From: Candidatus Thorarchaeota archaeon
GTDB lineage: Archaea; Asgardarchaeota; Thorarchaeia; Thorarchaeales; Thorarchaeaceae
Length of the DNA: 64,000 nucleotides
Assembly: GCA_963726195.1 (NCBI GenBank)
Contig: CAVSBO010000004.1
Coordinates: 192,001-256,000, forward strand
Reading direction: 5' to 3'
Below, in pieces: positions 40,610 to 51,271 of this stretch. Below the pieces are notes generated by a model that worked only from the letters and a program-made list of their open reading frames with translations, searched no databases and was not told where the DNA came from. The translations under genes and the position numbers were made by a program. Numbering within the stretch: position 1 is the first letter of the stretch; every line of letters begins with the position of its first letter.

Positions 40610-40909
40610 CGGATGGTTGTCGAAGCAGTCCAAAGATAAGCAATCGGATATGACTCCGTTGAGGCGACCAATTGCGTCAAGAGCCGCACAATGCAACGTT
40701 AGAGTTATATCTCAGACCAGCCGATGCTGCTTCTACAACTCCAAGGCGGGATTAGAAGCTCACAGATACGAATCTTGGAACACGTGTTCCAATGAGCGCC
40801 GTTGAGAGACCATCTCTCGGGCGTTTCTCACTCCTTGTCTATGCATCACTGGGCTGCAGTGATGATTAGGCACAATCCCCCTGAAGCAACAAAGGAGCGT
40901 GACAGAAGA

Positions 40910-42943
40910 ATGAGGAAGTATCCCTGCAAAGAACCTGTCCTTGTTACATGCGGACTGCCATACGCCAGTGGCCCATTGCATCTAGGGCACCTCAGGACCT
41001 ACGTGCCTGCAGATGTCTTCGTTAGATTTCTGAGAAAGCTGGGCGTGAATACGACTTTCATTTGTGGTTCGGATACGCATGGGACTCCCATCATGGCTGC
41101 CGCCGAGAAGGCAGGTGTCACCCCTAAGGAGTTGTTCACGAAGTACCACCAGCTGTACCAGACCATCTTTCCGAGGCTCGGCATTTACTTCGACAACTAT
41201 GGTAGCACAGATGATCCAGAGAATCACAGTAGGACAACGCAGATTGTGACCGCTCTTCAAAAGGGCGGCTACATCTACGCCAAGGATCTCCAGACACCAT
41301 ACTGTGACAATGAGAAGAGATCCTTGCCTGACCGGTATGTCAGGGGCGAGTGTCCATATTGCCACAAGGATGCGAGAGGTGACGAATGTGACCAGGGGTG
41401 TGGCAGATACTTGGAGCCTGGAGAGATATTGAACCCCCGTTGCGCAATATGCGGCTCACCCACGCACCCAATAACTCGAAAGCACTACTACTTCCGGCTC
41501 ACGAGCTTCGCCGACTTCCTGCAGAAGTACCTTGAGGGACTAGACGGTACGAAGAACGCGAGGAACTACGCTCTCGGATGGCTTCACGAGGGGCTCAAAG
41601 ACTGGTGCATAACGCGTGATATTGATTGGGGCGTGAGATACCCAGGAGACGAGAAACTGGTTCTGTATGTCTGGGTTGATGCTCCTATTGGCTACATATC
41701 CAGCACTGAAGAGTGGGCCAAGAAGATTGGGAAACCGAATGCTTGGGAGCGCTTCTGGAAGCCGGGCGATGGGCGCATAGTCCATTACATAGGGCAAGAC
41801 ATTACTTACCATCACTGTATCTTCTGGCCTGCGATGCTGAAGGGAAGCGGCTACAATCTGCCGGATGCAGTAGTTGCATCAGGCATGGTGACCGTAGGAG
41901 GTAACAAGCTCAGCAAGAGCAGAGGATACGTCATCTGGATTGGAGAGGATTACTTGGACAACAACCTTGATCCTGACTATATGCGATACTACATGGTTTC
42001 GTACTCCAGCCAGACTAAGGACCTTGACTTCACGTGGGAGTCATTCAATGAGAAGGTCAACAGCGAGCTCGTGAATACACTTGGCAACTTCCTATACAGA
42101 GCATTGTACTTCGCCAAACAGAACTTCAATGGCGTCCCTCAGGGAAAACCAGCAGAAGCAATTCAGCAGAGAATCCAGAAGACAGTCGAGGCTGTCATTG
42201 ACGGCATCAACGAGTATGAGCTGAAAAAAGTGGCTGACGAGGTCATGGCTCTGGCCGCCTATGGCAACGAATACTTCCAGAGCAACAGACCGTGGGAGTT
42301 AGTCAAGAAGGACAAGGTGAAATGCCAAGAAGTGGTTTACAACTCGCTGAACTTGGCCAAAGCCATAGCAGTCCTCATTGAGCCAATCATGCCGTCTGTG
42401 GCAGAGAAGGTCTGGTGTCAGTTCGCGTTGAGTTCCGACGTGCATAAGGTCGGGCTCGACGAGACATCAAAGCCCTTGAAAGAAGGGTCGAAGCTTGGTG
42501 ATGTCAGCCCTGTAATAGTCAAAATCGATGAAGAACTCCTCTCAAGGTTGTCCGATGTGACATCCAAACGTATACAAGCGGCGCTAGCTGCGGACCATGC
42601 GGAGCCTGAAGTCAAGATGATATCTTTCGAGGAATTCAAGAAGATGGACCTGCGTGCAGGGAAAATCATCGAGTGTACTCGTGTTCCGAGAACAGACAAG
42701 CTTCTGAAGCTGCAGGTAGACATCGGCACCGAAGTTAGGACAATAGTCACTGGTCTGGGTCACCTCTATCCGCCTGAGAAGCTGAAAGGCCTTACTGCAT
42801 TGTTCATTGTCAATCTGGAATCGAAGAAGATTGGCGGAATCGAGAGCAAGGGCATGATTATCGCGATTGAGAAGGCCGATGAGCCTGACCACTGGGTCCC
42901 TGTAACAGTCGAAGGAGTACCGCCGGGAAGCAAGGCCGCTTGA
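40910..42943 (+). CDS. metG: Methionyl-tRNA synthetase
   Basis: LPYASGPLHLGH, GSDTHG, Zn knuckles, YVWVDAPIGY, KLSKS; C-terminal tRNA-binding domain (ISFEEFKKMDLRAG). Confidence 0.97.
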   Translation: MRKYPCKEPVLVTCGLPYASGPLHLGHLRTYVPADVFVRFLRKLGVNTTFICGSDTHGTPIMAAAEKAGVTPKELFTKYHQLYQTIFPRLGIYFDNYGSTDDPENHSRTTQIVTALQKGGYIYAKDLQTPYCDNEKRSLPDRYVRGECPYCHKDARGDECDQGCGRYLEPGEILNPRCAICGSPTHPITRKHYYFRLTSFADFLQKYLEGLDGTKNARNYALGWLHEGLKDWCITRDIDWGVRYPGDEKLVLYVWVDAPIGYISSTEEWAKKIGKPNAWERFWKPGDGRIVHYIGQDITYHHCIFWPAMLKGSGYNLPDAVVASGMVTVGGNKLSKSRGYVIWIGEDYLDNNLDPDYMRYYMVSYSSQTKDLDFTWESFNEKVNSELVNTLGNFLYRALYFAKQNFNGVPQGKPAEAIQQRIQKTVEAVIDGINEYELKKVADEVMALAAYGNEYFQSNRPWELVKKDKVKCQEVVYNSLNLAKAIAVLIEPIMPSVAEKVWCQFALSSDVHKVGLDETSKPLKEGSKLGDVSPVIVKIDEELLSRLSDVTSKRIQAALAADHAEPEVKMISFEEFKKMDLRAGKIIECTRVPRTDKLLKLQVDIGTEVRTIVTGLGHLYPPEKLKGLTALFIVNLESKKIGGIESKGMIIAIEKADEPDHWVPVTVEGVPPGSKAA

Positions 42944-42972: not shown

Positions 42973-43587
42973 TCATCGAGAGCCCTCTGACAGGACTGGT
43001 TCGACGAAGTTCTTCAGATCGTCAATGCCAGCATAGACGTGAGCGTCTATTCCTAGGCTCGCTGCTGCGGCAATGTTGCTCTCTTTGTCATCAAAGAACA
43101 GGCACTCCTGAGGACGGACTCCCACCACCTTGAGCATCTCCAGAAATGACTGTGCATCAGGCTTTGTGTATCCAACATCGCTGGATGCAACTACATGAGT
43201 GAACGGGCTATCCTTCCCGAAGTCCCTGAGAATCTTCTTCTTTGATTCGGTGTCAGAATTGCTGAATATGGAAACGGGAATCGTCTTGGAGACTGTCTTG
43301 AGGTACGCCAACAAGTCCGTGTCGATTGACGAAGTGTTATCGTAAACCGACTGCATGACACGCTTGTGTGACACGCGTTTCAATCGAGGCTCTTTCGCTT
43401 GGACCTTCTTCCACCATTCGTTTCGGGTCGTCTTTCCCCTGAGAAGTGCCCTGCCAAACTCATCGTGCCAAAGCGTGTCGTTGAAATCATCTAACTCGAA
43501 GCCCATATTCCTACAGGCCTCTTGGGCTGCCCGTTTGTCAAGCAACCTCAATACTCCATCAAGATCGACAACTAGTGCTCGAATCAT
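42973..43587 (-). CDS. HAD-superfamily phosphatase
   Basis: MIRALVVDLDGVL, FSN, KPD, FFDDKESN. Confidence 0.9.
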   Translation of the reverse strand: MIRALVVDLDGVLRLLDKRAAQEACRNMGFELDDFNDTLWHDEFGRALLRGKTTRNEWWKKVQAKEPRLKRVSHKRVMQSVYDNTSSIDTDLLAYLKTVSKTIPVSIFSNSDTESKKKILRDFGKDSPFTHVVASSDVGYTKPDAQSFLEMLKVVGVRPQECLFFDDKESNIAAAASLGIDAHVYAGIDDLKNFVEPVLSEGSR

Positions 43588-43785
43588 TGTCTTTGCCAAT
43601 CGTCTTCTGCAGATGGCTTTTGCGGAGATTCGAGTGCAGACAGGGGTCCATATCCAAGGTGCCATCGAGCCGAATACTCGATTGTGCACAAGATAGGAAG
43701 TGTTGAGACTATCACACCGACGCTTGCAGAGAGGCATCCGCATCGTTCATCTAGCTGTCGAGCTCAGGATGGGGTCAGTGATTGA

Positions 43786-46700
43786 GTGAACTTAAGAATC
43801 CGCGGCGCTCGCGAACACAACCTCAAGGGCGTAGACGTCGACATTGGTGACGGTCTCACAGTTGTTACGGGCGTCTCCGGCTCTGGCAAGACATCCTTGG
43901 TGTTCGATACACTATATCATGAATCGCGCCGGCGGTTCCTCGATGTGTTCTCAACGCGTGCTCAGTTGATTCGTCTTGCTCCCGCGAATGTTGAGTCACT
44001 GACCGGCGTGGGCCCCGCGGTTGCCGTCGGTCAGAATCTTCTGAACCGCAATCCTCTTTCTACGGTCGCAACCGCGTGTGGGCTTCACCCGTTCCTCCGC
44101 CTTCTTTATGCAAGGTTTGGTGTCAGGTACTGCTCTCAGTGCGGAGAAGGCCTGTCCATTCTTTCAGAGGATGAAATACTGGAGAGAATCCTTGCTATCT
44201 CGAGGCAGGATAAGGTCACGCTCTATGCCCCGATTGTGCGCGACGCAAGAGGAAGCCATCGCACTTTGCTGGAAATTCTTTCAACGGAGTTCGGCAAGGA
44301 GTCTCTAGTTGTGGACGGAAGATCTTTGTCCGACAAGCGCCTGCGACCTATTGACGAGCATACGATTGAGGTGAGGCTTGCTAGTCTCTCACCCGGCTCT
44401 CCTCTGGCGGCCGTTCGTTCCGCCATCGAGAGGTCTGCCGCACTGGGTGCCAGCGCGATTGTTGCGGACACTGATGGCTCAAGACTGGCTCTATCAAGGG
44501 CCCCGATTTGTCCCACTTGTGGAACTCATTTTGACGAGATCCAGCCTGTTCATTTTCACACTGCATGCCCGTACTGTGAAGGCAAAGGGTGTCAGGAGTG
44601 TAGCATGTCCGGACTCCTCCCGCAGGCTGCGGCGGTCCGATGGGAGAATCTCAGAATCGATGAACTGCTTGCTCTCACCGTAGACGAGGCACAGGCTCTC
44701 TTCACGAAGACCAATATGCCTTCGACTGGTAATCGTTTGAAATCAGAGATTGCGAAGAGGCTTGATGCACTTCAAACAGTGGGCCTTGGATACATTCAGC
44801 TATGCAGGTCGTCGCCGACGCTTTCGCGAGGAGAATCGCAGCGCGTTCGCTTGGCGGTCTGTTTGTCAAGTCGACTGGAAGATGTGTTGCACGTGTTGGA
44901 TGAGCCTACAATAGGCCAACATCCTGCTGATGTTGCGAGGATTCTGCCAGCCTTCCGGAATCTTGCAGGACCCGTGGTTTATGTTGAGCATGACAGAGCC
45001 GCAGCCGCTTATGCTGACCGGGCGATAGACCTCGGGCCCGGCGCGGGCGATGAAGGAGGAAAAATGGTATTCGCGGGTGCACCTGCAGACTTGTGGCAAT
45101 CGGAAACAATCACGGGACGCTACTTCAGCCTGCGTGAAAGGGTGGTCGCTGCCGCGCCGCGATCAAAGTCCAAACAATTCCTAGAGATTCTCGGAGCCAA
45201 TGTTCATAATCTTCAGGCCATAGACATCTCGATTCCGGTAGGCAGGTTCGTAGTGATAACAGGAGTATCGGGCTCGGGTAAGAGCACGCTTGTCGAGGAT
45301 GTTCTGGTCCCATCACTTGCTAAGGGAAAGCCTGTGAACTGCAGAGCGGTGATTGGACCCAAGCTTAAGCCTGTGGTCGTAGATCAGAGTCCGATTGGTC
45401 GCAATCCCAGATCAAACCCCGCCACTTACACAAAGCTCTCCGACATTGTTCGGGACTTGTATGCGAAGCAGACCGGATTGTCGCCGTCGCACTATTCGTT
45501 TAACAGGCCTGAGGGTGCCTGTCCCACCTGTGCTGGCATCGGAGCCGTTGAAGTGAAGATGCGGTATCTGCCTTCAACTTGGATTCCATGCTCAGACTGT
45601 GATTCTCAACGGTTCTCAGATGAAGTACTTTCGAGAAAGGTCGAACTCGGTGGGCAGAGACTGTCGATTGCGGATTTCTACAGGCTATCTATCTTTCAGG
45701 TCCGTGCTCTCTTGGCAGAGGATAGTCGGCTTTCTGCAGCAAACCGAGCTTCTGTCAGAAGCATGCTGGATGCGTTGGTAACAATCGGACTTGGCTACGT
45801 CCCCATGGGCCAACCATCACCCAGCCTTTCAGGCGGTGAATCGCAGAGAGTGAAGCTTGCCAAGTTTCTGGGTAGAAAGAAGCTCGCCGACCGTCTGATA
45901 ATCCTAGATGAACCGACTACCGGATTACACCCACGAGATCTCAGAGGCTTGCTAGAGGTTCTCAACACGCTAGTCGAAGCCGGAGCCAGCGTGGTTGTTG
46001 TCGAGCATAATCTGGACATCATTCGAGCGGCGGATTGGGTGGTTGATCTTGGTCCTGGAGCAGGACCCATGGGAGGTCAGGTTGTCTACGAGGGCCCACC
46101 CAGCGAACTGATGACCACGAGAGCCTCTGTAACTGGGAAGGCATTAAGGGAAGAAGAATCAATCCATCCTCAGGCGGGAGCTGGGAAGGTTGGTGGACAA
46201 TCAGACTGCATCTCGATTAGGAATGCTCGCGCGAATAACCTCAAGGGTGTTGACATAGACATTCCCAAGGGGCTGTTCACGGTCGTCACCGGAGTGTCTG
46301 GTTCTGGCAAGTCCAGCCTTGTTCATGATGTGCTTGAGGCTGAAGCCAAGAGGAGATTCTTGGAGAGTCTCTCATTATATGAAAGACAAGGAATCCAAGA
46401 AGGTCCGGAAGCTCCTGTTGGATCAGTCAGTGGGCTCGGCGTTTCAGTGTCTATCACTCCGGGTGAAAGGCTTTACAGTAGACGTTCTACGGTCGGGACT
46501 GTCACTGAGATTTCACATCATCTTGCAGTCCTGCTTGCTACGCTTGGCGAACGCACGTGTCTCAAATGCGGAGCGAAGATGGAGAGAGGCGTGGAATGGA
46601 CATGCGCGACATGCGAGGAGACCGCTCCTGTTCTTGAGGCAAGGCACTTCTCATCGTCCACATACTACTCGGCTTGTCCAATGTGCAACGGGATCGGCAC

Positions 46701-48647
46701 TCTTCAGGTGCCCGATTCTAGTAAGCTAATCATCAATCCTGACCGGGCAATATGCGGCGGAGCAATGTACTCCCCCGGTTTCTTCCCTAAAGGTTACCTG
46801 TGCAAACCGTACAACCATGGTTACTATTTCGTGCGGGCTTTGGGCCATCGATATGGTTTCGACCCGGAAATCACACCGTGGAATGAAATGAATCCTGAAG
46901 CGCAGAATGCTTTCTTGTTTGGCGACTCGGAGCCACTCAGTGTAACGGTCGAGAGTCGGACCAGACCTCCCACAATCAGGAATCTCCCATATCGCGGATT
47001 CTACGGTCTCATAGGAGACTGGGACGTTGGCGGAACCTACACGAGCACCAAGATTTGCACACAGTGCAATGGCACTGGGTTTCGTCCTGAGGTCTTGGCG
47101 GTTAGACTCGCTGGATACGATGTTCATGCACTTGGTGAGATGCCACTTACCAGACTGTTCTCAAGTCCTCGGTACTCTGGAGACCGTGGTTCCAAAATCA
47201 ACTCAGTCCAAAGCCAACTTGAAAACAATCCTAGAACGCCTGAAGTTCCTAGTCAGTGTCGGGGTCGGATATCTGCATTTGAACAGAGTCTCAGCCACCC
47301 TCTCTGCTGGCGAGGCTCAAAGAGTTCGCATTGCAGGGATTCTCGGAAGTGGTCTCACGTCACTGACGGTCTTGCTTGATGAGCCGTCCAGAGGAATGCA
47401 TCCGTCAGAAGTGGATGCACTCGCCAATGTCCTGAAAGAGCTGCGACACGAAGGCAACACCGTTGTCGTGGTGGAGCACGACCCGGCCCTAATCAAAGCC
47501 GCAGACCACATCGTGGAGATGGGCCCCGGTCCTGGAGACGATGGCGGGAACGTAATTGCAGAAGGCAATATCGATGATGTTGGGAGGACCGACACTCCGA
47601 CTGGTAGGTGGTTGCGAGGCGAGTTCAGGATAGAAATCCCGAAGGAGAGAAGAGAACCAAAGGATTGGCTCGTTGTAAAGGGCGCACGAGAAAACAACCT
47701 TCGCGAAGCGGATGTCAGAGTGCCTCTCGGCCTGCTAGTAGGCGTGTGTGGTGTCTCGGGCTCGGGAAAGAGCACTCTCATAGTGGACACGATAGGCCGT
47801 GCCCTTGCGCCAAGACAGATAACGACGAGTGTTGCGCAGGAACCGATGCAACCTGGCGCCCATGACTCGATCGAAGGCGCACCAAGAAGAACAATCGTTC
47901 TTGATCAGACCCGCGAACACATAATCAATCCCGGTCAATTTCTCGATGTCTTTGGACCACTGACATCCCTGTATGCTGAGAGCAATGATGCCAAGGCCCT
48001 TGGGCTTTCTGAGGACGATTTGACCAGACCATGTTCCACATGCGATGGTCGGGGGATGATCCGAACCGACATGGGTTTTCTCCCGGATGCGATTACACCT
48101 TGCGAGACATGTCAGGGGACCGGGAGGTCAAAGGAGTCTTGGGACGTACGTGTGAGCGGCGTTGCGTATCCAGAGCTTGCCCGGTTGACCATTGACCGGG
48201 CTTGGGCGTTGTTCGGTGAAATCGGAGCCATTGGAAGGAGGCTGCAGGCTGCAAGGGATGTCGGCCTAGGCTATCTTGTCCTACACCAACCGGGCCAGAC
48301 ACTATCAGGCGGGGAGTGTCAGCGTTCTCAAGATTGCAAAGGAGCTTTCACGGGATGTCCCATCACCGACGATGTATATTCTGGATGAACCTACAGTGGG
48401 CCTGCACGTTCAAGACGTGGACAGACTGATTCGAGTATTGCGTACGATAGTGGATGGCGGAGATTCTGTTGTTGTGATTGAGCATCACCCTCATTTTCTT
48501 TCAGCATGTGACTGGCTTATTGAACTAGGTCCAGGGGCAGGACCGGACGGAGGCCGGGTTATTGCTTCAGGTACGCCTGAGCGCATAGCACACTCTGATA
48601 CACCAACTGCTCCATATCTAAGAGACGTTCTGGAGGCCGAAAGATGA
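43786..48647 (+). CDS. uvrA: Tandem-duplicated UvrA-like ABC ATPase with four nucleotide-binding domains; frameshifts near 47158 and 48325
   Basis: Four GVSGSGK(T/S) Walker A motifs, four LS(R/G/A)GE.QR signatures, four LDEP Walker B motifs, GARxxNL motifs and multiple CxxC Zn sites. Confidence 0.88.
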
Positions 48648-49681
48648 CTTGGGCCGCCCTTCTCTTGGCAGATCCTTCTCCCTGTTCTCAGGCTGCTCGT
48701 TCTTCGGGAACTCCTGCATCGTCCTGAGGGAGACCCCGAACTCAGCGAGCTAACCAGCTCAAGGATGAAGATCCCGTCTCTAGGATGCTTCTTCGCTTGC
48801 AGCTTGATGATGGTTCGTGGAAAGACACATCGGCTTCCGGAAGTGCTCGAAGAGAGCGTCACATTGCGACGTCACATGCATTAGCAACCTTGGGTTTTCT
48901 TGGATATAATGCAGAGCACCCGGCTGTCAAGCGCGGCACAGAGTATCTCTTCTCAAAGCAGAAGCATGACGGGTCGTGGCCACTTCCCGGCAATTGGGAA
49001 CGCGAGGAACCGACGGCAAAGGGCTACACAATGATTCCTCTGCAGACGGCAGTTCCTCTTCGTGGCATTGCAGCATGCGGTCTTGGAACGGACCCGCGAG
49101 CTGAACAGGCGTATGAGTGGCTGCTGTCCCAGACCCTAGAGGATGGGTCTTGGCCAACGGGGAAGGCTGGCGAGGTCTACGGACGTGTTGCAGGTTATCG
49201 GCGTTTGCCACACTCACGCTGGGGCTGCCGGTCGAACACAACAGCATCACTGATTTGCTTGGCCCTGCACGCGGCAAGGAGGACAAGCACTGCGGCCAAG
49301 CGGGCACTTGACGTACTTCTTGCGCGAGAAACACGTGAACGGCTCGATTTGGGCTTTGAGGTTGCGAGGACCATCGGGGTCGAGAAGTCAAGCGGCTTCC
49401 TTACGTATCACGCCAAGTTCGATATGGCGCTCCTTCTCGGTCTATGTTGGAGAATAGGCGCGGACAAGAGCGATGAACGCATTTCCGAACTGACTAACTA
49501 CATCATAAAACAACAAGGCATGTACGGCCTTTGGGAATACCTGCCTCACCCAGAGGCATCGAGGTGGGTGACCTTCGATATTCTTAGGTCACTGGAGCAA
49601 CTGGACAAGTCGACGGATTGGCTGACGATGGAGCCCCGTACCGCCTTCAGTGCCTATCCGAAGAGAACAAAACGATATTGA
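48644..49681 (+). CDS. Cytoplasmic QW/prenyltransferase-repeat alpha/alpha-barrel protein; N-terminus disrupted by two frameshifts
   Basis: ATG 48644 overlaps the UvrA stop (ATGA). MTWAALLLADPSPC-LRLLVLRELL; QLDDGSW, QKHDGSW, QTLEDGSW, QGMYGLW. Confidence 0.75.
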
Positions 49682-50719: not shown

Positions 50720-51271
50720 ATGGCGCGTGTCGCTAGAGAAATGGTTGAAAAAGCAGGAATCGACGTCGACAAGCTGCTGACCCTCTTGGTAAAGAATGCG
50801 GCGGCCGAGTTGACTACGTTCTACTACTACACAATCCTCCGAGTCAATTTGATTGGACTAGAGGGTGAAGGGATAAAGGAAATTGCAGAAACAGCACGGA
50901 TCGAGGACAGGAATCACTTCGAGGCATTGGTTCCCCGTATCTACGAACTTGGTGGCGAGTTGCCAGCAAGCATGGTTGATTTTCACAACCTAACAGCTTG
51001 CCCACCTGCGAAACTGCCCAAGGATCCCAAGGACATCAAGGCGATGCTGACAGTGCTCGTTGAGGCAGAGCGATGTGCAGTCAGGGGATACACCCAGATC
51101 TGCAACCTGACAGCTAGCAAGGACCACAGAACCTACGATCTTGCCTTGGCCATTCTGAATGAGGAAATCGAACATGAGTCTTGGTTTTCAGAGTTCCTAG
51201 GCGAAGGCCCATCTGGTCACTTTCTCCGTCGTGGCGAAACATCGCCCTTCGTGGGGAAGTTCATGCGCTAG
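50720..51271 (+). CDS. dps: DPS-like (DpsL) archaeal ferritin-superfamily protein
   Basis: AAELTTFYYYTILR, ARIEDRNHFE, ACPPA, AERCAV, DHRTYDL, EEIEHESWF. Confidence 0.93.
   Translation: MARVAREMVEKAGIDVDKLLTLLVKNAAAELTTFYYYTILRVNLIGLEGEGIKEIAETARIEDRNHFEALVPRIYELGGELPASMVDFHNLTACPPAKLPKDPKDIKAMLTVLVEAERCAVRGYTQICNLTASKDHRTYDLALAILNEEIEHESWFSEFLGEGPSGHFLRRGETSPFVGKFMR

Follow-up and report, generated by a model that had tools for sequence, protein, structure and literature searches.

What would be the task of a UvrA in which two unequal protomers are joined in a single polypeptide? UvrA is a symmetric damage sensor, and how its protomers divide the labor of lesion search and hand-over is debated. 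The question is raised by a gene of Candidatus Thorarchaeota archaeon (GenBank assembly GCA_963726195.1, contig CAVSBO010000004.1), found in a stretch of 64,000 nucleotides (contig positions 192,001–256,000) that we refer to as the window. A preliminary description had proposed that window positions 43786–48647 encode a single-chain double UvrA of about 1,620 codons with four ATP-binding cassettes (ABC), whose two halves carry complementary deletions. The present analysis confirms that this region is one UvrA-UvrA fusion of 1,619 codons with four intact ABC ATPase cassettes. The explanation that we favor, with moderate confidence, is that the intact fusion, which we designate type A, and a toroid protein encoded directly downstream form an accessory module for DNA surveillance or protection that acts independently of UvrB and UvrC.

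A UvrA-UvrA fusion with complementary domain losses

In the assembly, the gene is divided among three overlapping open reading frames (ORFs; 43786–47379, 47027–48388, and 48276–48647), each of which matches UvrA models in a profile search. When the genome was searched with profiles, TIGR00630 tiled the region as two successive UvrA units. The protein contains four Walker A motifs (GSGK; residues 32–35, 496–499, 839–842, and 1325–1328), four Walker B motifs (DEP), and four signature motifs, and thus has the number of cassettes and the length first proposed for it; its four conserved ATPase sites are accompanied by six zinc modules. All four ABC modules, each with Walker A, Walker B, signature motif, and H-loop, are intact in the window protein and invariant in the type A family, with signature I reading LSRGE in half 1 and LSAGE in half 2. 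The first ORF scores 910.5 on TIGR00630 (cut-off 729.8), a value reached only by adding stretches from both halves, and its score of 831.9 on NF001503 falls below the cut-off of 1,147. On the Chlamydial model NF001885, whose cut-off is 3,054, the window protein reaches 520 bits.

The overall organization of each half was compared with that of UvrAs of known structure, to which both halves align with E-values of approximately 1e-150 to 1e-160. Half 1 comprises ATP-binding domain I with signature domain I (LSRGE), a UvrB-binding-type domain, ATP-binding domain II with signature domain II (LSGGE), and the Zn3 module. Chain positions 25–303 and 418–953 of Geobacillus stearothermophilus UvrA (PDB 2r6f) are covered by the alignment, which skips the insertion domain. 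The UvrB-binding-type domain of half 1, which we call the docking domain, sits between the Zn1 cysteine pairs C116/C119 and C242/C245 and aligns to the UvrB-binding domain of 2r6f. In the Zn2 module, C261-x2-C264 directly meets C269-x2-C272. Half 2, which was aligned through an intact ortholog of the same genus whose numbering is identical to that of the window protein, comprises ATP-binding domain I' with signature I' (LSAGE), the insertion domain, ATP-binding domain II' with signature II' (LSGGE), and Zn3'. Its alignment to Thermotoga maritima UvrA (3pih) spans positions 4–129 and 251–916 and skips the UvrB-binding domain; just 12 residues lie between C925/C928 and C940/C943. The insertion domain of half 2 measures approximately 124 residues, and the Pfam domain UvrA_DNA-bind is recognized at 981–1071. 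In terms of TIGR00630, positions 286–401 are absent from half 1 and positions 128–251 from half 2. Neither half aligns full-length, each missing one accessory domain, and the preliminary description is upheld in both of its parts: half 1 has lost the insertion domain at the junction CPYCEGKGCQEC (~44566–44604), and half 2 has kept that domain while losing the UvrB-binding segment.

Both of the retained accessory domains have diverged. PF17760 (UvrA_inter) gives the double UvrA 22–25 bits and canonical thorarchaeotal UvrAs of the same genus 94–123 bits, and PF17755 (UvrA_DNA-bind) gives 21–24 bits and 84–100 bits, respectively.

A protein search recovered more than 100 relatives of 1,611–1,679 amino acids with 59–86% identity from Thorarchaeota, Bathyarchaeota, Anaerolineae/Chloroflexi, and Aminicenantes, which databases label "excinuclease ABC subunit A" or "ATP-binding cassette domain-containing protein". 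When a single genome of each species was scanned, at least 582 loci that encode relatives were found. They are distributed over archaea (Thor-, Hod-, Heimdall-, Hermod-, and Promethearchaeota and Bathyarchaeia) and bacteria (Chloroflexota, Acidobacteria, Dormiibacterota, and Actinomycetota, the last including the cultured Kribbella, Microlunatus, and Actinopolymorpha alba DSM 45243). A 20-member alignment revealed that all 24 zinc cysteines, the four GSGK and four DEP motifs, LSRGE in half 1, and LSAGE in half 2 are invariant.

Counting the residues between zinc cysteine pairs in 56 full-length double UvrAs separated four architectures, of which only type A is complementary. In type A (~40 loci in Asgard archaea, Bathyarchaeia, Chloroflexi, Acidobacteria, and Actinomycetota), half 1 has a docking domain of ~123 amino acids and 0–5 residues in place of the insertion domain, and half 2 has 12–24 residues in place of the docking domain and an insertion domain of 99–129. 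The corresponding values in the window are 123/5 for half 1 and 12/124 for half 2. This pattern is invariant across the ~40 full-length members from two domains of life, and the window gene displays it in full: docking domain without insertion domain, then the reverse, LSRGE with LSAGE, and an overlapping toroid gene downstream. Type B (Desulfobacteraceae and others) has a complete half 1 and a half 2 without the insertion domain; both halves of type C (Geothrix, Holophaga, Myxococcales) are class-II-like; type D (Chlamydiota) has a half 1 without the insertion domain and a complete half 2. The parallel that had been drawn with the duplicated UvrA of Chlamydiae thus does not extend to the architecture, which in type D is non-complementary.

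A tree of double-UvrA halves with canonical and class II UvrAs (705 columns, IQ-TREE quick) places the type A half 1 and half 2 sequences in one clade each (support 100). Branching within the two clades matches, from which we conclude that a single fusion event occurred and that the halves have been inherited together. The two halves are not sisters of each other; half 2 groups with an 839-amino-acid class-II-like UvrA of Loki genomes (support 99). Types B and C form clades separate from type A. Archaeal and bacterial type A members are interleaved, which indicates transfer between domains. This class-II-like UvrA of Loki (Promethearchaeota), 839–851 amino acids long, is encoded directly upstream of the double UvrA and is the closest relative of half 2 in the tree.

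Do the halves differ in residues that contact DNA? Canonical UvrA dimerizes via homotypic contacts between ATP-binding domains I (PMC12796330). Cryo-EM of UvrA locates the dimer interface in this domain, where the interacting pairs include Y55-Y55, F66-F66, and G80/L81/P83 with L507/M508/V510 (PMC12796330). Y62, Q65, and F66 of ATP-binding domain I of Ct-UvrA insert into the bent duplex (PMC12796330). Alignments with these residues revealed that half 2 retains the equivalents of Y62 and Q65 (Y865 and Q868, each invariant). The Y/Q/F probing residues are all missing from half 1, where an arginine occupies the Y position and two residues are deleted at Q/F. Both halves retain the RRRF motif (in which Y55 is replaced by F), the G-x-G loop, and the aromatic residue of the Zn3 hairpin (Y594 and F1431). 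This asymmetry fits a division into one DNA-probing half and one docking half and is silent on whether the halves pair within the chain.

Two chains could instead associate, each half pairing with its counterpart in the other chain, to produce one dimer with two docking domains and another with two insertion domains. The homotypic pairing of canonical UvrA is a precedent for such an arrangement, and the interface segments (RRRF, and G-x-G-P-A or G-L-G-V) are present in both halves. The linker between the halves is short (~23 residues) and variable, which argues weakly for a compact intramolecular arrangement. The strict co-inheritance of the halves and their congruent trees fit both models alike. 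On balance, we consider a two-chain dimer distinctly improbable and prefer the reading in which the halves pair within one chain.

Integrity of the gene

The preliminary description mentioned two frameshifts in the gene. Both are +1 shifts caused by insertion of one nucleotide within a shared 9-mer, GTTCTCAAG. A genome of the same genus (G002) contains an uninterrupted ortholog of 1,619 codons (P0124, 1,619 amino acids); over 4,862 bases, the two extra bases are the sole indels relative to this intact gene at 82% DNA identity. We also compared window positions 46900–48700 with contigs from public short-read runs; for the first frameshift site, none of the runs contained half or more of the words. 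A contig from run X1 with 0 mismatches to the window does not have the T at 48325. In run X2, an identical contig continues as CTCAAGATTG after 48325 and hence also lacks the extra T. An X2 contig identical to the window lacks the T at 48685, which again lies in GTTCTCA, inside the next gene. In run X3, two contigs more than 90% alike (6 and 10 differences) lack the base at 47158/47159 as well as the extra base at 48325.

Similar discrepancies extend beyond the gene. Comparison of the window with G002 revealed seven single-base indels in 7.8 kb, or about one per kb (43634, 43653, 47158, 48325, 48685, ~48755, and 49690). Elsewhere in the genome, uvrB and the second uvrA (uvrA') are frameshifted and uvrA carries an in-frame TGA; five related genomes have intact copies of all three. 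The assembly consists of 19 contigs, the longest of 916 kb, and is 88.9% complete. Its single-base errors resemble errors in homopolymer length, which a long-read assembly would fit. Because identical contigs lack the extra base, the same-genus gene is intact, and the assembly has this rate of indels, the frameshifts are most likely assembly errors and the gene is most likely intact in the organism; the idea that they belong to the gene is contradicted by the short-read contigs and by the G002 ortholog.

Could the gene nonetheless be a true pseudogene, inactivated by both frameshifts? Both are present in the deposited assembly, and among the short-read contigs compared none with 100% identity spans the first site, which counts against an intact gene. 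This reading is difficult to reconcile with the window-identical contigs that lack the extra T at 48325 and 48685, with the GTTCTCA context whose extra T accounts for all three insertions, with the otherwise undamaged 4.86 kb, and with the similar single-base indels in adjoining genes and in uvrB and uvrA', two genes of which relatives have intact copies. Programmed +1 ribosomal frameshifting is excluded because the incoming frame relative to GTTCTCAAG differs between the two sites. We therefore regard inactivation as a very remote prospect and proceed with an intact gene.

We also considered whether GTTCTCAAG is a special motif in this genome. Its raw 3.5-fold excess vanishes under a Markov background, and the idea was rejected. 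Removing the T from GTTCTCA or GTTCTCG merges long ORFs two to three times as often as deletion at control motifs. When k-mers in candidate frameshift overlaps were scanned without bias, the GTTCTCAAG context was not ranked at the top; it is one error context among several. Given the many single-base indels in this metagenome-assembled genome, its apparent pseudogenes in general are suspect.

The toroid partner and the uvr genes

The gene that follows the double UvrA starts within an ATGA overlap at 48644–48647. Its assembled sequence has one T too many at 48684/5 (GTTCTCA) and one base too few near 48755; its G002 copy matches PF13243 (squalene-hopene-cyclase C-terminal domain) with 42.5 bits. 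Searches of all ORFs of the loci with phmmer detected the toroid gene directly downstream and on the same strand in all 41 type A loci with enough downstream sequence; none was detected at loci of types B, C, and D. Its start usually coincides with the UvrA stop across type A loci. The toroid gene is translationally coupled to the double UvrA and is an obligate partner of type A. An AlphaFold model of the partner is an alpha/alpha toroid with a predicted local distance difference test score (pLDDT) of 87.6 and a predicted template modeling score (pTM) of 0.89. The partner matches no PADLOC and no NCBIfam model.

The genome also has a separate uvrABC system, a uvrB-uvrA-uvrA'-uvrC cluster (Table 1). 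The genes uvrA and uvrA' encode tandem full-length canonical UvrAs, each with UvrB-binding and insertion domains. The cluster with this tandem pair is conserved and intact in five genomes of the Thorarchaeota family (L102–L111), and the products of the pair may form a UvrA heterodimer. The double UvrA was not found in three of these five genomes, which are 97–98% complete and contain uvrA and uvrA'; it is therefore an accessory gene. Two chromosome-level metagenome-assembled genomes of Bathyarchaeota, CP070765.1 (G033) and CP070784.1 (G036), yielded no match to uvrB, uvrC, or canonical uvrA. The former encodes an intact type A protein of 1,648 amino acids and the toroid protein; the latter has only a 616-amino-acid UvrA piece beside its toroid gene. 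The piece in CP070784.1 (Bathyarchaeota bin16, L084) is C-terminal, and an N-terminal UvrA piece lies ~540 kb away, the result of either rearrangement or splitting of the gene or misassembly.

These findings bear on what the docking domain might bind. Its low PF17760 score and the occurrence of the gene pair in genomes where uvrB and uvrC were not found make it unlikely that the docking face serves UvrB alone. The asymmetric pseudo-heterodimer of the preliminary description, with one partner-docking and one DNA-probing face, is retained in part: the complementary domain losses are real, the asymmetry of the probing residues points the same way, and a docking face devoted to UvrB alone is unlikely.

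UvrB is nevertheless encoded in this genome and in the Kribbella, Chloroflexia, Loki, and Hermod carriers. Because this genome and most carriers have UvrB, a role in nucleotide excision repair (NER) is possible, which weighs against independence from UvrB and UvrC. In its most specific form, a pseudo-dimer would initiate a variant of NER by loading a single UvrB via its lone UvrB-binding domain, with the toroid protein as an accessory. The window's copy of that domain aligns to the canonical one and lies barely above the PF17760 cut-off, and the Chlamydial double UvrA is the sole UvrA of a uvrB-bearing genome. This proposal is opposed by the two Bathyarchaeota genomes with the gene pair (one of them with the 616-amino-acid piece only), by the distance of ~105 kb to a uvr cluster that has two UvrAs of its own, by the divergence of the docking domain from its canonical counterparts, and by the identity of the conserved neighbor, which is the toroid gene and never uvrB. 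We consider an NER variant unlikely and prefer a module that acts apart from UvrB and UvrC.

Type A was compared with known UvrA systems and differs from each of them. With class I UvrAs (TIGR00630/NF001503; PDB 2r6f, 3pih, 3zqj, and 9gxk) each half shares a core of two ABC modules with signature domains and three zinc modules, as well as the interface segments of ATP-binding domain I and the Zn3 hairpin aromatic. Type A differs in that two copies are present in one chain and each lacks one accessory domain; signature I reads LSRGE/LSAGE rather than LSGGE; the Y/Q/F triad is gone from half 1; and the protein is co-encoded with a toroid, unlinked to uvrB and uvrC, and present where these genes were not found. 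Each ~940-amino-acid unit of a class I UvrA carries both a UvrB-binding and an insertion domain, which neither half does, and class I UvrAs co-occur with uvrB and uvrC, which is not the case in CP070765.1 and CP070784.1 (the latter with the 616-amino-acid piece).

Class II UvrAs (Deinococcus radiodurans UvrA2, PDB 2vf7; DrrC; Ecm16, PDB 7sh1) resemble half 2 in having no UvrB-binding domain. They are homodimers of chains of ~750–850 amino acids that carry two insertion domains and lack a docking domain, whereas a type A chain has one of each plus the toroid. Class II UvrAs also lack Zn1; half 1 has both Zn1 and a docking domain of 123 residues, and only half 2 of the 1,619-amino-acid chain is class II-like, although it retains a collapsed Zn1. 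Ecm16 acts without other NER proteins, independently of UvrB and UvrC (PMC9328131). UvrB/C-independent action is plausible for the double UvrA.

The Chlamydial double UvrA (NF001885/PRK00635, ~1,780–1,810 amino acids) likewise joins two UvrAs in one chain, the first of them without an insertion domain. The second is complete and canonical, whereas the second half of type A has no UvrB-binding domain, and the Chlamydial protein is the only UvrA of its genome, with uvrB alongside and no toroid partner. Types B and C are also four-cassette single-chain fusions (1,660–1,880 amino acids); their domain losses are non-complementary and no toroid gene follows them. Types B–D were found in loci L070–L101, none of which has a toroid neighbor.

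Table 1. Positions of the features of the type A locus, with those of the uvr cluster and of examples from other loci. Positions are those of the window unless a contig or locus is named.
Feature	Position	Strand	Remarks
Type A double UvrA gene	43786..48647	+	1,619 codons without the two extra bases; 3 ORFs in the assembly
Half 1, residues 1-806	43786..46203	+	Alignment to 2r6f omits chain positions 304-417
UvrB-binding-type (UvrA_inter) domain, diverged, residues ~120-241	44143..44508	+	PF17760 25.1 bits, residues 127-196
Collapsed Zn2 module CPYCEGKGCQEC, insertion domain deleted	44566..44604	+	Cys pairs 5 residues apart
Linker between halves, ~23 residues, poorly conserved	46138..46206	+	Consensus mostly 'x'
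Half 2, residues ~808-1619	46207..48647	+	Alignment to 3pih omits 130-250
Collapsed Zn1' module, C925-x2-C928 ... C940-x2-C943, UvrB-binding domain deleted	46558..46614	+	
Insertion (DNA-binding) domain of half 2, residues ~968-1090	46687..47055	+	PF17755 20.9-23.9 bits; aligns to 3pih
First frameshift, most likely false; extra base in GTTCTCAAG, ~47158	47157..47165	+	
Second frameshift, most likely false; extra T at 48325 in GTTCTCAAG	48324..48332	+	
Toroid partner, ~345 aa, squalene-cyclase fold (QW-repeat alpha/alpha toroid)	48644..49681	+	ATG overlaps UvrA stop
Methionyl-tRNA synthetase (MetRS), neighbor	40802-42943	+	
HAD-family hydrolase, neighbor	42973-43743	-	
Ferritin-like protein, neighbor	50720-51271	+	
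uvrB-uvrA-uvrA'-uvrC cluster	G000:C4:341915-351472, outside window	-	~105 kb downstream of double UvrA
Loki class-II-like UvrA	L037:3161-5677	+	Equivalents in L032, L034, L035, L044, L047
BtrH_N/DUF4872 upstream regions, examples	L035:119-3165, L025:2660-3877	+	

A candidate module for DNA surveillance

In the mechanism that we propose, the two halves would pack via their ATP-binding domains I like two UvrA protomers and so create a hard-wired asymmetric sensor. This sensor would clamp duplex DNA with its single insertion domain and probe it with half 2, from one side. Through its docking domain, half 1 may recruit the toroid protein, rather than or besides UvrB, to serve as the effector or to bind a ligand. 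DNA that is distorted or carries a ligand would then be protected or processed, much as by class II UvrAs such as Ecm16; DrrC and Ecm16 would be the nearest functional counterparts. In this genome the module would work beside the ordinary uvrB-uvrA-uvrA'-uvrC repair cluster. It is tempting to speculate further that type A and its toroid constitute a self-contained surveillance pathway without UvrB and UvrC, common to Asgard archaea, Bathyarchaeia, and several bacterial phyla, in which the fused UvrA would find distorted or ligand-bound DNA and the toroid protein, docked on the UvrB-type domain, would remove, sequester, or chemically process the lesion or compound; we put this more specific version forward tentatively, as a possibility that falls short of probable.

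Several points weigh against these proposals. Divergence of the docking and insertion domains (~21–25 bits on the Pfam models) means that their activities cannot be assumed from sequence resemblance. Both the pairing of the halves within one chain and the binding of the toroid protein to the docking domain are steps that we infer. Foldseek searches with the model of the partner returned matches at the level of the fold only, to class II terpene cyclases and to thioester domains of complement and macroglobulin proteins (template modeling scores 0.3–0.5), and the partner has no recognizable catalytic motif. Finally, none of the public RNA runs queried contains the 43786–48647 stretch.

A further alternative is that the locus encodes an anti-phage or anti-plasmid defense system based on a UvrA-like ATPase. 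The patchy spread of the family across domains of life, suggestive of horizontal transfer, would suit such a system, and PADLOC reports strong matches to the MADS components mad3 and mad8; the MADS defense system seems to contain UvrA-like proteins. These matches cover generic UvrA ATPase modules, however, and are perhaps common to other UvrAs. For the G002 ortholog P0124, they amount to 400 bits (mad3) and 177 bits (mad8), on the UvrA ATPase modules. The toroid protein matches none of the PADLOC models, and no third conserved gene and no conserved nuclease or other effector was found near type A loci. In the window, the neighbors of the module are ordinary housekeeping genes (MetRS, the HAD hydrolase, and the ferritin-like protein), and inspection of neighboring genes revealed no mobile-element or defense context. 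We consider a defense system highly unlikely and favor DNA surveillance or protection.

In six to eight Asgard loci, the module is preceded by one or two BtrH_N/DUF4872 genes, joined in Loki by a class I methyltransferase. These neighbors provide a lineage-limited hint of small-molecule chemistry.

A literature search found no publication on a double UvrA with complementary deletions or on a UvrA-toroid pair; older classifications of UvrA homologs were beyond its reach. The four-type classification, the grouping of half 2 with the Loki UvrA, the asymmetric loss of probing residues, and the recognition of the window's frameshifts as errors come from the present analysis. As a natural single-chain version conserved in two domains of life, type A would be an asymmetric UvrA ready-made for structural and single-molecule work, and its cultured carriers Kribbella, Microlunatus, and Actinopolymorpha alba make the module testable. 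The toroid partner, together with the presence of type A where UvrB and UvrC were not found, points to a way of protecting or repairing DNA that is so far undescribed.

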